A stretch of DNA of 64,000 nt from positions 1,782,302 to 1,846,301 of the forward strand of contig OY730414.1 in NCBI GenBank assembly GCA_963422615.1. The letters run 5' to 3'. Made by a program: the position numbers. The DNA comes from Longimicrobiales bacterium (GTDB lineage: Bacteria > Gemmatimonadota > Gemmatimonadetes > Longimicrobiales > Gaopeijiaceae). Below, piece after piece: positions 41,001-47,000 of this stretch; the first letter of the stretch is position 1; every line of letters begins with the position of its first letter.

Positions 41001-44000
41001 TTGCCCCTGTTGGCTCTGTGACGGAGGACCCTCAAGGGCTCCCAGTCCGCTCCCTCGGATTCGGCCAATGCCCCCGTGCCATCCGTTGAGCCGTCGTCAA
41101 CGATGATGACTTCTCCGGAAAGGCCGTGGACATCGAACGCGGTCCGGAGCTCCCCGACCAGATCCGGGATGTTGGAGGCTTCGTCGTAGGCGGGAACCAC
41201 CACGGCGAAGTCGTCGTAGGCGGTTCGTTCAAGCAGATTGGCCAATGGAAACATCCCCGGGAGCGTGTCCGTTCGACCCGCGCACGGATTGCGCGAGCTA
41301 GAAGCGTTTTCGCATCCTCGCCGGAACAATCCCCAGGTGGTCCCGGTACTTTGCCACCGTGCGGCGAGCAATCTTTACGCCATCGCTCTTTAGAAGGTTC
41401 ACGATCGCTCGGTCCGTCAAGGGGTTCCGAGAATCCTCGTCATCTACCAAGTTCTTGATTCTGGCGCGTACGCCCCGAGAGGAGACATCCCTTCCCATGA
41501 CCGTGGGGAGACCACTGGAGAAGAAGTACTTGAGAGGAAACATCCCGGTGGGCGTCTGCACGTACTTCCCGGCGGTGACGCGGGAAACCGTGGATTCGGC
41601 TGTACCGATGTGTTCCGCGACCTCTCGAAGGGTCAAGGGCTTGAGATGCTGAACCCCCTTGTCGAAGAAGTTCGCCTGGCGGTCCACGATGAACCGCATG
41701 ACCGATAGCATGGTCTGGCGGCGCTGCTCCATGACTTGGATCAACCAGCTCGCTGCGTTCAGTTTTTGGGAAATGAACTCCTTGTTCCGCCCGGTAAAGC
41801 TTCCCCTGTCGGCGGCCACCTCCCGGTAGGAGCGAGAGAGCCGCAATCTCGGCACACTGGTGTCATTGACGAAGACCATGTATTCCCCGCCGACTCGTTC
41901 CAGGATCAGATCCGGGACGACGTAAGGGTCGGGGTCTGCGGCGTACTTGCGCCCCGGCCTGAGGTCCAGCTTGGCAATTTCGTCGGCAATCTTCTGAATC
42001 TCCCGAAGCGTGACCTCCAGAATTCGAGAGAGCTCCGTCCAGCGACGGTTGAGGAAGGCGTCGAAGTGAGCGCTGGCAATCCGATAGGCCAGCGTATCTT
42101 CCCTACCCTCTTGCTTCAGCTGAATCCGGAGGCACTCCCCAAGCGTCCGGGCCCCGACCCCGGTCGGGTCCAGCCCTTGGACCACCTGGAGCACGGCCTC
42201 CACCTCCTCGACACTGTAGGGGGCAAAGAGCCACGCCAGCTCCTTGAGCTCGGCTTCCCGCGCATCGTCGTCTTCGATCTCCCGGGCCTGCTCCAACCAG
42301 ATCTTGCGGATTTCTTCGGTAAGTCCGTCAAGACTCCGGGTGATCTCCTTGACGGAACAGCCAAGGAACCCGTCGTCGTCGATATTTCCGATGATCTCGT
42401 CCGCAACTCGAAGCTGGCGCTGATCCAGGCGGAGGAGGCGGATCTGCTCTTCCAGATGATCATGGAGCCCGAGGGACTCAACGGCCGTGGGCTGAAACGG
42501 TTCCGTGGGGTCGTAGCGTTGCCGGGATCCGCCTACATCGAAACCGTCCAGCAGGATTTCTTCCCAGTCAACCTCGTCTTCCGCGTCCTCCGAATCGTCC
42601 CGGCCCTCTTCGTCAAGCGGGAGATCATCTTCGTTGTCGGCCTCGGACAACTCGAGGAAGGGGTTTTCGGAGAGCTCCTGTTCCAGGTGGACCTGAAGAT
42701 CCAGCAGAGGCATGTGGAGCAACTCCATCGCCCGATACAGGCGTGGATTGGTCCTGACTTCCGGCCGTTGCTCGGGGCCTTGGTACAGGCCGCGTTCGGT
42801 TCTGCTCAAGGGAGAGTCAGGTTTCCGGGTGGGGGAACCTTGCTCTCATTCGAGACGTCAGAGATGGCCCCAGGTAGAGTGCGGCCACCTCATCGTCCCA
42901 CACGAGTTCCGGAACCGTCCCGCCGATCCGTATTCGGCCCTCGTACATGATGTAGGCCCGGTCCACGATCTCCAGGGTCTGTTCCACGTTGTGATCGGAG
43001 ATGATCACCCCGATGTCCCGGGTTCTGAGCTGGGAGACGATCTCCTGAATGTCGTGCAAGGCGATGGGATCAATGCCGGCGAACGGCTCGTCCAGCAACA
43101 TGAACTTGGGCCGCTGCACCAGAGCCCGCGTGATTTCCAGACGTCGGCGTTCGCCTCCCGAAAGCGAATACGCCTTGGCGTTGCGCAGGTGACCGATGGA
43201 AAGCTCGGCCAGAAGCGCTTCAAGTCGTTGGGCTCGCTCCTTCCGGGTAAGGTCCAGGGTCTCCAGAATGGCCATGACGTTCTGGGCAACCGTAAGCCTG
43301 CGGAACACGGAAGGTTCTTGAGCCAGGTAGCCGACGCCCATCCGGGCCCGCTTGTACATGGGAACCGGCGTCAACTCGGCGTCATCCAGGAATACCCTGC
43401 CCTCGTCGGGCGAAATCAACCCGACCAACATGTAGAACGTGGTGGTCTTCCCCGCTCCGTTGGGTCCCAGGAGCCCCACGATTTGTCGTTGTCCGACCAC
43501 GATATCAACGTCCGAAACGACCCGCCGCTTCTTGTAGATCTTGGTCAGGCCCTCCCCCCGCAGGACCGAAGACGGAGCGATCATTTCGATTCGCCCTTCC
43601 CCGGAAGGGACGGCCGACGGGAGCTCCGCGGCGGAGAGGAAGTATCGGTGGGCGTCGCCGTCGAATCTGCATCGGCCACCGTGGAGTCCGCAGGAATCGC
43701 CGGCGGCAGCGGCTCGAAGTGGTACCCCATCGTCTGGCCCTCAACCTCCATCAGGGTCACCTCGCCCGCGTCCAGATATACCGTAATCTCCTCCCCTGCG
43801 ACGAGGTGCAGGGCAAGCGGCCCGACCGGTTCCCCGGGGGTCGTATCCGACGGCGGAAGCCTATAAAGGCTACGGGCGTTCCCCGTCGACGTGAGGGATT
43901 CCAAGCGAGAGCCATTCACTGATGCGGCGACTTCACCGCTCTCCGGATTCGGAGGCAGGAAGCGGGCAACGATGGTCTCGCCCTCCATCCAGTCCTTTCT

Positions 44001-47000
44001 GGCGATTTCCGGAATGATTTCGGCGTCCAAAGAATCCTCCGGCGTCTCGCCGGCAGGCGTCCGAACGGCTTCCGCGCGGGCGGAACCCACCGCGGCAACC
44101 AACTCGAGAACTTGGCCGGGCGACAGAACATCGATGGAATCGGCCATGAGACCAAAGTTGTCCGCCAGGACCGAGGGCTGCCGAGACAGAGAATACGCCG
44201 CTGGCTCCAGGGCACCAGTTTCCCGGGATTGCGACTGCAATCTCCGAACGCGATCCAGGTCGGCGGGGGTGAGCCCCAGCCCGAGGGAATCCCCGGACGG
44301 ATCTCGATTCACGCCGGGCAGCTCCGGAATTTCGCGAACGCCGACCAAACGAGCCGCCTGGCCGTCCTTCAGAAACACGCGGATGGCGGGGGCCCGCATC
44401 ACGATCGTGCTGCCAACAAGATCCGCATCCCCCCGAGCCAGGATTTCCTCGTCGCGGCCCGTGGAGGGCAAGACGGCGATGTGTCGAGCGGTCAGGACAA
44501 AGCGGCGATCTTCGACCCGGGGGTTACCAACCAGGGACATGTTGCCTGTCTCTTGGTCGAACTCCAGAGAATCTCCTACGGCGCGGAGGGAATCCCGGGT
44601 GATCACCACGCCTCCGCGAGCTCGAAAATACTTGCGACCGTCGACAATGAACCGCTCGGCGTCGATCTCGTATGGCGCCGGGGGGACGGAGTCCGGGGAG
44701 GCCGGTTCGCCCTCAATACTGCCCGGGACACCGGCTTCCGCCCCCGAGTCCGACGGCGACGCGTCTTCCCCCTCCCCCTGGGATTCCGGTGTCTCCCCTC
44801 GGTAAACCGGGTAGACCGTTGCCCGAGGGTCGCCTTGATAGACGATCATCCGGTCCAGGAGCCGGAATTCCGAAGCTCGGTTGAAGACCAGCTGTTCCCC
44901 CCGGATCACGGTGCCGTTTCTTCGGTCCGTTACCTTCACATTCCCCGACGCGCGCAGTTCCCGGTCGTCGCTCAGGTAATCGGCCCGATCGGCTTCGAGT
45001 TCGGTACCCAGGTCCCAGAAGTGGACATCTCCGAACAGCTGAAGCAGGTTGCTGGATTCGAAGACGACGGCTGAATCAGCCAGGAAACTCGCGCCGTCGC
45101 CGCACCGATAATCGACGCCCCCCGAAGCGTGGTGCCGGTAATACAGAGAATCGACGCGCATGCTGTAGGAGTAGCCACCCACTTGTTGGAGTCCGCAGCC
45201 GGCGGACTGCCTGGCCAGGGCCACCTCCGGGAAGAGTAGGACGGCCAGGGCCAAGATCGGGAGCCTTCCCAACCGGGAAAGAGATTTCCTCCCCGGACAC
45301 GTCCCCCGGGGCGTCTTCCGGCCCCAACCCTCCCTTCCCGGAAACCTCATCTAGAAGCGCATCCACTTCCCTGGGATCCCGTCTCCCGCGTGCCCCAGAT
45401 CGTCACGTTCTCGAAAGACATATCGGCTTGGAATCGATCTCCTTCGACGGTGCACCCACCTTCCTTTACGACCACGGCCGAGTCCGTCCAGATCCGGTCC
45501 GCGCTGGGCGCGAAAATCAACTCCTTGCTCCGGATCTCCCGGTCTTGCTCCGGAATGACGAGGATCGCGTTCCCCGACGCCCACAGTTCATCGGTAGGTT
45601 GGCTCAACCTTCCCGAATCCGCCGTGATTTCGGCCCTCCTCATGCCCCGTTCATCGAAAATCAGGAGTGTGAGTCCGGCAATCTTTGCGTGAGTCGAGTC
45701 GTTCCACATGAACATGCTGTCGGCCCGCAACAAGGCTTCCCGGATCCCCTCTCGCGAAATGTTCCGCCTGACTTCGTAGGTGATGTGGTCGGCGTCAACG
45801 GCCGCCAGTTCCGTCGGGGCCGCTTCGTCGGAAGCGTTCGTACACGCCGAGAACGCCCCCGTCAGCGCCGGGAGCATCCGAAGGGCAAGGGTCGACCCAA
45901 AGGGTCGGCGCGAGGGTGGCATCAGCCCGCTCCAGCCCGGAGTAGATCGTGAAGGTGAACGATTCCCAATAGGCCGGTCTCGTCTGCGACGGGCAGCGCC
46001 ATGATGCCGAACTCCTCCATGCGCCGCAGCGCCACGGCGCCCAGCTCATCGGGCGACGCGGTCTTGGGCGATCGGGTCATGAACCGGGAGACGGGGATCT
46101 CGAGGAAGTCCCCGGTTCGTTCCATAAGCCGGGTGAGGTCTCCAGCGGTGACCACCCCGACCACCGCGCGATCCTCGTCAATTACGGGCACGGTACCCCT
46201 CATTCGGGCAAGAGGGACGATGACCTCCCGCGCCGGCACATGGGGGGACACGGCCGGATAGTCGTCCGACTCCATGACGTCCTCCACTTGAAGAGTGAGG
46301 CGTCGGCCCAGAGAACCTCCTGGGTGAATCCGAGCAAAGTCTTCCGGGCAGAAGCCCCGCCTTCCCAGCGATGCGACCGCCAAGGCATCGCCCATCGCCA
46401 GGGCGGCGGTGGTAGAGGAAGTGGGTGCCAAGTCCATGGGACACGCCTCGGCCTTGACGCTACAGTCCAGGAGGACGGAAGCTCGCCGTGCCAAGGGGGA
46501 AGCAGGATTCCCGACAAGGGCGACGATGGGAATCTCTTGAATCTCGGCAAAATCCAGCAACCCGTCCAGCTCGGCAGTGGAGCCGCTCTTCGACAGGAGA
46601 ATCATGATGTCGTCGGGACCGACGATTCCCAGGTCGCCGTGAATTCCTTCGACGGGATGGAGGAAGACGGCGGGGGTGCCCGTGGACGTGAGCGTGGCGG
46701 CTACCTTCCGGGCGATGAGCCCCGACTTGCCGACCCCCGACAAGACGGCCCTACCCCTGGAGGCGGAGATCAGGTCCACGGCGCGGAGAAATCCTTCGCC
46801 AAGGCGATCGGCGAGCGCGGCCACGGCTTGGGATTCCAGGCACAGAACCCGTTTGCCCTCCTCGAGGGCCACGTTCCCCGCCAGATCAGGTGATGCGCGC
46901 GCGACAATACGCTTCGACCAGTCCATTCCATTCCCCACGGGCCTTCAAGAGGGCTTCGGCGAATTCCCGAACGGCACCCCGTCCCCCCTCTCTCCGGCTC

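Follow-up and report, generated by a model that had tools for sequence, protein, structure and literature searches.

A probable long LptA of the FCB type, modelled as one continuous beta-taco, encoded between lptC and lptB in a Gemmatimonadota genome

The protein encoded between lptC and lptB in the 64,000-nucleotide window analyzed here, from a Longimicrobiales genome of the phylum Gemmatimonadota, is most probably (about 0.88) an LptA orthologue of the long FCB type: a continuous beta-taco bridge of some 44 strands that would run from LptC to LptD, with one copy probably spanning the gap. The gene, its synteny, its uniqueness in the genome, the constant length of its strand ladder and its homology to Bacteroidota OstA-like proteins were all observed with computational tools. 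As the initial annotation had proposed, the protein in the LptA slot is the LptA of this genome, based on its lptC and lptB flanks and on its being the sole LptD_N or OstA_2 match.

The long lptA is an intact ORF (43581..45350) and lies on the minus strand, as do all the features described below; the gene order is kdsB-pyrG-kdsA-kdsC-kdsD, lptC, long lptA, lptB and then rpoN. Upstream of lptC, the Kdo synthesis genes kdsA-kdsC-kdsD (45922..48255) scored over the cut-offs of the KdsA, KdsC-family and KpsF/GutQ models. The same was true of lptC (45347..45922, 191 aa) with Pfam LptC and TIGR04409, of the ABC ATPase gene lptB (42817..43584) with TIGR04406 (339 bits, cut-off 240) and of the sigma-54 gene rpoN (41298..42809) with TIGR02395. 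The ATG of the long lptA at 45350 overlaps the lptC stop codon as ATGA, and its TGA overlaps the lptB ATG. Since the frame opens at this ATG, the protein probably has 589 residues rather than the 557 first counted from 45254; the shorter call begins within the signal peptide and thereby loses its basic n-region (9 K/R in aa 1-30). A TTG at codon 27 is a possible alternative start. In the lptC product, a probable lipoprotein, a lipobox-like Cys follows the hydrophobic stretch. Among 30 Gemmatimonadota loci, lptB was present at 28 and lptC at 21, counts that are limited by short flanks.

A Sec signal peptide is predicted at about aa 1-46 (45213..45350). It and its cleavage site were read by eye from sequence and hydropathy as a basic n-region, a hydrophobic stretch from aa 30 and an ALA motif preceding the mature start, and homologues have similar N-termini. 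The top hydropathy window starts at aa 30 (2.95) and the best one past aa 60 reaches 1.9, a profile that points to a soluble periplasmic protein that carries a cleavable signal peptide and is otherwise free of membrane anchors.

Searches of the 98% complete genome with LptD_N and OstA_2 retrieved only the long lptA, confirming that there is no other LptA/OstA-type gene. Its score against Pfam LptD_N (24.9 bits, cut-off 20.4) passes, and its 557-aa database record carries a precomputed PF03968; the absence of family calls first reported thus holds for NCBIfam, where no family attains its cut-off, and not for Pfam. The proteobacterial LptA equivalog TIGR03002 gave 15.7 bits, far below its cut-off of 71.7, and since the protein has about 44 strands it was not assigned to this single-unit, 16-strand class. 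OstA_2 (PF13100) was narrowly missed (20.5 bits, gathering score 21.2), so that the protein is not a member by score; precomputed PF13100 was counted by hand on 56 of the 120 listed homologues, and 9 of 28 diverse family members matched OstA_2 at E<=0.01. A PDB sequence search with a 67-sequence family profile gave no match at E<=10. The same genome encodes LptE, LptF/G, LpxC, LpxK, WaaA and an LptD of the LptD_2 type; Pfam LptD (PF04453) found nothing in it. That the protein is a jellyroll lipid-transfer protein for some other cargo, and not an LPS bridge, seems to us very improbable. Its sequence similarity to proteobacterial LptA is very low, and Bacteroides LptA was also cross-linked to surface lipoproteins, according to a preprint (bioRxiv 10.64898/2026.10.02.756314). 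However, the lipoprotein cargo of Bacteroidota is additional to LPS and does not replace it, and the protein is here the sole candidate, placed in the canonical slot of a genome with a full lipid A/Kdo/Lpt gene set, and it is placed on LptD by the docking model described below.

The fold of the long LptA, its continuity and its docking on LptD were all read from predicted structures. Residues 46-181 superposed on E. coli LptA (2r19) with Z 15.6 and rmsd 2.3 Å over 123 aligned residues, and the compact-homologue equivalent of the middle strands superposed on LptA with Z 16.7 and rmsd 2.2 Å. The best VIA-align matches for both models were LptH, LptA, LptD and LptC, which argues for a beta-jellyroll (beta-taco) of the LptA/LptC/LptD-N type. 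MORN-repeat and OspA-type sheets, at Z 8-11 and below the Lpt matches, were set aside as general beta-ladder likeness. In the model the first 16 strands, also outlined by the LptA superposition, occupy aa 52-179 (44814..45197), the middle strands aa 227-338 (44337..44672), and the C-terminal strands, together with three further variable loops, aa 393-545 (43716..44174). Between them, loop-length comparison delimited variable loop 1, acidic and Pro-rich (aa 180-226; 44673..44813), and variable loop 2 (aa 339-392; 44175..44336), which contains a predicted helix at aa 362-377. The low-complexity C-terminal tail (aa 546-589 plus the stop codon; 43581..43715) has pLDDT <50 for aa 559-589 and is 1 to 324 aa long across homologues. 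Two cysteines at the LptC-facing end probably form a disulfide: across 78 sequences C83 never varies, and C52 is conserved in at least 90%.

The initial annotation had recognized the jellyroll fold, which the 2r19 superposition bears out, and had divided it into three LptA modules on disordered linkers, a division that we abandon. Its linkers coincide with low-confidence loops of the model and are two of five variable loops on a continuous ladder. Three whole LptA units derived by gene triplication and joined by flexible linkers, that is, a covalent LptA trimer, would fit three observations: blocks one and two, of 16 strands each, both superpose on E. coli LptA over its whole length (aa 30-164) with Z of about 16; the chain aligns with itself when shifted by about 120-130 aa (E 2.2e-6); and stretches of low confidence, 47 and 53 aa long, lie near the block ends. 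However, the blocks number 16, 16 and only about 12 strands, the end of the second LptA-sized block falls one strand beyond loop 2 and not at it, and stronger self-alignments are found at shifts of about 30-50 aa (E 1.9e-13) and 50-75 aa (E 1.1e-12). Nor are the linkers obligatory. Loop 1 (47 aa here) has a median of 11 aa and loop 2 (53 aa here) one of 5 aa in 119 compact relatives (420-533 aa, median 450), where they do not exceed 15 aa in 112 and 117 cases, respectively; the three other insertions (25, 14 and 14 aa) behave alike. With all five loops removed, the median core length was 342, 345 or 351 aa, depending on which of three sets, totalling 304 relatives, was measured, with lengths taken by hmmalign and 305 of 379 proteins passing an 85% coverage filter. 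The linkers are lineage-specific variable loops on a constant ladder of about 345 residues, and this constancy sustains the earlier proposal that in Gemmatimonadota a single long chain bridges the periplasm, the length that is fixed being that of the ladder.

Single solved domains also superposed rigidly over both junctions of the supposed trimer. Junction 1 was crossed by LptC 6mjp (aa 100-274, 126 aligned, 2.6 Å) and by LptD 5iv9 (aa 50-272, 162 aligned, 3.1 Å), and junction 2, in the compact model, by the LptD jellyroll of 5iv9 (13-206, 158 aligned, 3.2 Å). Residues 155-420 of the compact homologue L034, which cross junction 2, were predicted to fold as one domain (pLDDT 95.1, pTM 0.89). 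The trimer, already weakened by this compact-homologue model, appears improbable, with a duplication history possible for the first two blocks. The models favor instead a single uninterrupted beta-taco that far exceeds 16 strands; the count of about 44 is a reading of DSSP output in which long strands are split in two. A search for short forms (30-230 aa) returned 11 proteins with no sign of a split Gemmatimonadota gene: five were on contigs of about 1 kb, four had no contig on record and two were ordinary LptA.

In the modelled complex, strands at aa 530-548 of the long LptA were placed on aa 88-104 of the LptD of this genome. The docking score was 0.72, against 0.00 for the best of three controls, the runs agreed in at least 97% of contacts and the partner pLDDT was at least 74; of the solved pairs, 116 of 157 attain the docking mark, as do 2 of 215 mismatched pairs. 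This suggests that the edge strand at the C-terminus joins the N-terminal beta-taco of LptD, although the pass may stem from likeness to known beta-taco stacking. Because the docked strands are the last of the former third module, the doubt expressed earlier over that module is reduced. The long LptA would be exported by Sec, cleaved at its signal peptide and folded into one beta-taco whose roughly 44 strands equal about 2.75 times the length of E. coli LptA, or roughly 11 nm, with the five dispensable loops hanging off. Its C-terminal edge strand would pair, as modelled, with LptD. By analogy with E. coli and Bacteroidota, its N-terminal edge strand would pair with LptC, and LptB2FG would pump LPS whose acyl chains would slide along the groove. 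One copy would probably span the gap. The long chains could still polymerize head to tail into a variable bridge longer than one chain, since both terminal edge strands must stay free for LptC and LptD and self-pairing is thus geometrically possible; E. coli LptA in isolation forms polymers of up to eight subunits, according to one paper (PMC10863985). We consider this unlikely, because a single chain by itself contributes about 11 nm, because the F. johnsoniae translocon, when purified, comprises LptD and nine further subunits of which only LptS is said to occur twice, implying one LptA, and because in a Latescibacteria genome a fusion protein covalently fixes one long LptA on LptD.

Within Gemmatimonadota, profile A1 matched 142 of the 151 genomes and left 9 without a match, and OstA_2 matched in just two of five deep-branching genomes, so that phylum-wide presence, as first claimed, is shown for the main class and weakly elsewhere. 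The lengths of 530-850 aa given at that time were too narrow, as they start at 420 aa. Neither is the family restricted to Gemmatimonadota. Its profile aligned with Bacteroidota OstA-like proteins over 379 columns (hhalign probability 99.65, E 5.1e-25), and the Bacteroidota profile in turn found only the long LptA ORF in this genome (E 3.8e-14); this homology along the chain and the reciprocal match point to a long LptA of the FCB type. The C-terminal strands match the C-terminal region of the Bacteroidota proteins, the C-terminal third reaching 97.6% probability with the full Bacteroidota profile and only 45-86% with 5-sequence subsets of it. The best match of a second Bacteroidota profile covered 263 columns anchored at the C-terminus; other registers were significant too, and the register is ambiguous. 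In a small sample of other phyla reached via an LptB motif scan, two Ignavibacteriales loci among the matches listed encode an OstA_2 protein, of 463 or 479 aa, immediately ahead of lptB.

These results fill an annotation gap, as most Gemmatimonadota copies are named 'hypothetical protein', and the 420-450-aa versions of Gemmatimonadales offer compact, confidently folded objects to study several LPS molecules per groove. The pre-assembled bridge presented as new is not so, since the main structural point, a long continuous LptA, is already in a Bacteroidota cryo-EM preprint of October 2026 (bioRxiv 10.64898/2026.10.03.756453). A known type is extended here beyond Bacteroidota, by a member whose ladder is of intermediate length and whose locus keeps the ancestral gene order. 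The bridge does not settle stoichiometry either: the authors of that preprint read the length of Bacteroidota LptA as spanning a wider periplasm, which does not fix the E. coli copy number, a question that long LptA alone leaves unanswered. No paper on Gemmatimonadota LptA or periplasm width was found in the literature outside subscription journals. More tentatively, and with considerable doubt, LptA ladder length might be a lineage-fixed ruler of periplasm width, set at 16 strands in E. coli, at about 44 in Gemmatimonadota and at 56 in Bacteroidota. The bridge of Gemmatimonadota would then be a 1:1:1 arrangement of LptC, a single long LptA and LptD, in which LptC is held by a lipid anchor and lacks a transmembrane helix and the outer end carries an LptP-type lipoprotein; surface lipoproteins might be exported through this bridge, as in Bacteroidota.

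Among known systems, E. coli LptA (YhbN; 2r19, 2r1a) and P. aeruginosa LptH (4uu4) share the fold (Z 15.6-16.7, rmsd 2.1-2.3 Å). E. coli LptA also has the same gene position (kdsD-kdsC-lptC-lptA-lptB-rpoN), a cleavable signal peptide and a C-terminal edge towards LptD. It differs in having 16 strands against about 44 here, with 11-16% identity in superpositions, and it self-associates into a bridge of uncertain copy number. In Acidobacteriota, Hyphomicrobiaceae and others, long LptC-LptA fusions likewise make one chain of several LptA lengths directly upstream of lptB, but these chains of 609-783 aa begin with a Pfam LptC, whereas LptC is a separate gene here. Against the FCB C-terminal third they gave probabilities of 13% and 0.2%, with profiles of only 5 and 2 sequences, which suggests independent elongation. 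Bacteroidota LptA (F. johnsoniae; B. thetaiotaomicron BT_3849) is also a long single-chain continuous beta-taco on LptD, seen there by cryo-EM and here in a model. We infer that the LptA of the cryo-EM preprint is the OstA_2 protein, as B. thetaiotaomicron, taken as a control, matches OstA_2 and not LptD_N; Bacteroidota LptA structures were absent among the fold-search matches, in a Foldseek library that ends in April 2026. Bacteroidota LptA has 56 strands, and none of 29 loci of that phylum show lptB or lptC in their short flanks, whereas the gene described here still lies between the two. Unlike Bacteroidota LptA, its product has two conserved cysteines near the N-terminus and, within the taxonomic family of the host, long acidic loops, and compact members end shortly after the last strand.

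On the minus strand the genes follow the order kdsB, pyrG, kdsA, kdsC, kdsD, lptC, long lptA, lptB and rpoN. The long lptA frame spans 45350 to 43581 (-) and encodes 589 aa; its ATG overlaps the stop codon of lptC, and its own stop codon overlaps the ATG of lptB. The 557 aa given in the initial annotation is probably too short, as that call starts within the signal peptide, in its hydrophobic stretch, and misses the basic n-region (nine K/R in aa 1-30), which close homologues (586 and 601 aa) also possess. Translation could alternatively start from a TTG at codon 27, which would leave the mature protein unchanged. 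Contrary to the previous report of no Pfam call, the protein reaches 24.9 bits against Pfam LptD_N (cut-off 20.4), while it falls narrowly below the cut-off of OstA_2 (20.5 against 21.2 bits) and none of the NCBIfam models reached its cut-off. No second LptD_N or OstA_2 match was found in the genome, which is 98% complete; the feature is real and its assignment as LptA was correct, given its slot between lptC and lptB and its standing as the sole candidate. Some homologues (protein records P0288 and P0344) already bear the JGI name LptA. The rest of the LPS machinery in the genome includes LptD (LptD_2 type, 960 aa), LptF/G, LptE, LpxC, LpxK and WaaA. On the 3' side of rpoN, the region 35444-41371 (-) holds a GT2 glycosyltransferase and three further proteins which, by sequence appearance only, are a UDP-GlcNAc 2-epimerase, a GT4 enzyme and a membrane protein of 852 aa, and we read it as an envelope glycosylation block.

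The protein had been described as three LptA modules on disordered linkers. Its AlphaFold2 model (67 sequences; pLDDT 77.7, pTM 0.72) shows strands over aa 52-179, 227-338 and 393-545; confidence is low in between and in three further loops. In an alignment of 379 proteins on a profile of compact relatives, where 305 reached a core coverage of at least 85%, the window protein showed five insertions of 47, 53, 25, 14 and 14 aa. Loops 1 and 2, at the two junctions (aa 180-226 and 339-392), are short in the 119 compact relatives (medians of 11 and 5 aa), where loop 1 is no longer than 15 aa in 112 proteins and loop 2 in 117; among the closest relatives listed (81 of 120 passing the coverage filter) they are longer, with medians of 87 and 48 aa. 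Without the five loops the core is nearly constant in length (three sets gave medians of 342, 345 and 351 aa; range 303-405), and the spread from 420 to about 900 aa therefore comes from loops and tails. Across junction 1 of the full model, LptC 6mjp superposes rigidly at 2.6 A (aa 100-274, 126 aligned), as does LptD 5iv9 at 3.1 A (aa 50-272, 162 aligned). At junction 2 only five residues separate the strands in the model of aa 155-420 of the compact homologue L034 (pLDDT 95.1, pTM 0.89), which superposes with 5iv9 over 13-206 (158 aligned, 3.2 A) and with 7omm over 15-194 (156 aligned, 3.3 A). Loops that shrink in compact relatives, a constant core and single solved chains that span both junctions argue against separate modules, and the modelled fold is that of one continuous ladder. 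Loop 2 (44175-44336 (-)) also carries a predicted helix (aa 362-377) that is conserved in the closest relatives of the host and absent from compact members; it is possibly a family-specific binding element.

Against E. coli LptA the first block gives Z 15.6 (2.3 A, 123 aligned); for the second block Z is 16.7 (2.2 A, 124 aligned), and that match ends one strand beyond junction 2. Scoring long DSSP strands as two, with calibration on LptA as 16, the model would contain 16+16+12 = 44 strands. At about 40 A per E. coli LptA, the length given in a passage of PMC10863985, such a ladder would measure about 11 nm. Duplication of one whole LptA-sized unit during the history of the chain would agree with a self-comparison match at an offset of 120-130 aa (E 2.2e-6), but lower E values were obtained at shorter offsets, of about 30-50 aa (1.9e-13) and 50-75 aa (1.1e-12), which speaks against a whole-unit triplication. 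A short strand repeat accounts for the chain at least as well as a triplication would, though one whole unit may have been duplicated.

A profile built from 67 close relatives matched in 142 of 151 genomes of the phylum, a tally that takes in the own genome and two unpublished ones (G055 and G094); beyond the main class the matches were weak and partial. Named homologues identify the phylum as Gemmatimonadota. The proposed occurrence throughout Gemmatimonadota is thus upheld with this reservation, but the proposed length range of 530-850 aa has to be widened to 420 to about 900 aa. Among 30 fetched loci, one of them the host's own and another L028 from G094, lptB was a neighbour in 28 and lptC in 21, counts limited by short flanks. 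At locus L013 (G129:C1 1751364-1753066), in a single-contig genome, the long lptA is split in two frames, possibly by a sequencing indel. In the single records P0014 and P0061 a long LptA reads through into LptB, with the joint of P0014 apparently out of frame; these are probably assembly errors because the two halves act on opposite sides of the membrane.

Long LptA proteins were also found in other phyla. In the ESM Atlas, 17 of the best 30 clusters belonged to a set whose head is a Bacteroidota OstA-family cluster (521 aa, score 0.93). A 31-protein OstA_2 profile from Bacteroidota aligned with the Gemmatimonadota profile over 379 columns (probability 99.65, E 5.1e-25), starting close to the N-terminus and extending to the last strand, and in the own genome it matched the window gene only (E 3.8e-14). 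The register is not unique, as with a second profile the match covered 263 columns and was anchored at the C-terminal end. The C-terminal third scored 97.6% against the Bacteroidota C-terminal region (45-86% with five-sequence subsets), compared with 31% for short LptAs and 13% for Acidobacteriota fusions. In the phylum of G151, a Mucilaginibacter by its locus title, OstA_2 matched in 96 of 101 genomes, the main open frames being 312-917 aa long. The 908-aa OstA-like protein of G151 (L192:1046-3769 (+)) has long low-complexity insertions, a loop expansion like that in the window's family. A scan for LptB motifs returned at least 120 stretches; among those listed, 80 had flanks and 77 a scannable upstream ORF, and LptD_N matched at E<=0.01 in 50 of the 77. 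By hand count, 14 of the 50 are longer than 400 aa, with lengths taken from the first possible start and L105 probably over-extended. The matches listed include two Ignavibacteriales proteins (463 and 479 aa) with OstA_2 above cut-off, one of them in the gene order kdsD-type gene, lptC, lptA, lptB. LptC-LptA fusions of 609-783 aa lie directly 5' of lptB in five Acidobacteriota (L041, L049, L082, L095 and L099) and two Hyphomicrobiaceae (L040 and L102) among the stretches listed, the latter unexpected inside Alphaproteobacteria. Directly 5' of lptB at L068, L061 and L101 we observed a 409-aa fusion (a Bacteriovoracaceae) and weakly LptA-like proteins of 537 and 433 aa.

Docking of window LptA (aa 388-550) on the LptD of the same genome (aa 76-250), each with its own alignment, scored 0.72 in three runs, while the best of three controls scored 0.00; contact agreement was at least 97% and partner pLDDT at least 74. 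Among solved pairs 116 of 157 attain the docking mark, compared with 2 of 215 mismatched pairs; with the alignments used here these counts apply only roughly. In the model the last LptA strands (530-548) pair head to tail with strands 88-104, the first of LptD, which supports binding of LptD by the C-terminal end of LptA, though the score may stem from resemblance to beta-taco stacks already known. In Latescibacteria G154, where lptC lies directly 5' of lptB, a long LptA is fused to LptD (1187 aa, L191:2133-5693 (+)), in the direction of the docking model.

E. coli LptC is anchored by a transmembrane helix. When the N-termini of lptC (45347-45922 (-)) and of loci L007-L034, L085, L115 and L194 were compared by eye, a Cys followed the hydrophobic stretch in 18 of 18 Gemmatimonadota proteins and likewise in one Ignavibacteriales and one Latescibacteria LptC, and in none of three proteobacterial controls; a strict pattern matched in 13 of the 18, not always at that Cys. 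Gemmatimonadota LptC thus looks like a lipoprotein. Outside the window, a predicted lipoprotein of 468 aa that carries an Ig-like (Big_5) domain (L225:1414-2820, or G000:C1:1680681-1682087 (+)) is a candidate for the LptP of the expanded FCB translocon; it is matched in the class (40 of 41 genomes, unpublished G094, G258 and G259 included) and in the phylum of G151 (38 of 41). After export and signal-peptide cleavage, LptA would fold as a single groove of about 44 strands, its N-terminal edge presumably pairing with LptC and its C-terminal edge, as modelled, with LptD; the groove would shield the acyl chains of LPS, its presumed cargo, under the push of LptB2FG. A bolder reading, in which ladder length acts as a ruler of periplasm width, LptC is lipid-anchored and a partner of LptP type takes part, seems to us possible but less likely than not. 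The bridge probably contains one copy of LptA; for E. coli, PMC10863985 describes the number as unknown and adds that one may suffice.

The long single-chain bridge is not new, contrary to what had been supposed, since a Bacteroidota LptA that forms a continuous beta-taco on LptD has already been described in a preprint (bioRxiv 10.64898/2026.10.03.756453), whose authors explain its length by a wider periplasm, and the window protein is probably homologous to it. The main text of that preprint does not name Gemmatimonadota; its Extended Data Table 2 and Supplementary Table 1, which cover the wider FCB group, may list the window's family. We found no paper on Gemmatimonadota LptA in the literature searched (subscription journals lay outside its scope). 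In a second preprint (bioRxiv 10.64898/2026.10.02.756314), BT_3849 is named as LptA, LptB-G were pulled down with it and surface lipoproteins cross-linked to it. These Bacteroidota LptAs would be OstA_2 proteins because B. thetaiotaomicron matches OstA_2 and not LptD_N in our controls, and 56 strands fit 470-600 aa. The window protein is a long FCB-type LptA in the ancestral gene order, with about 44 modelled strands, whereas the Bacteroidota ladder has 56 and that of E. coli 16.
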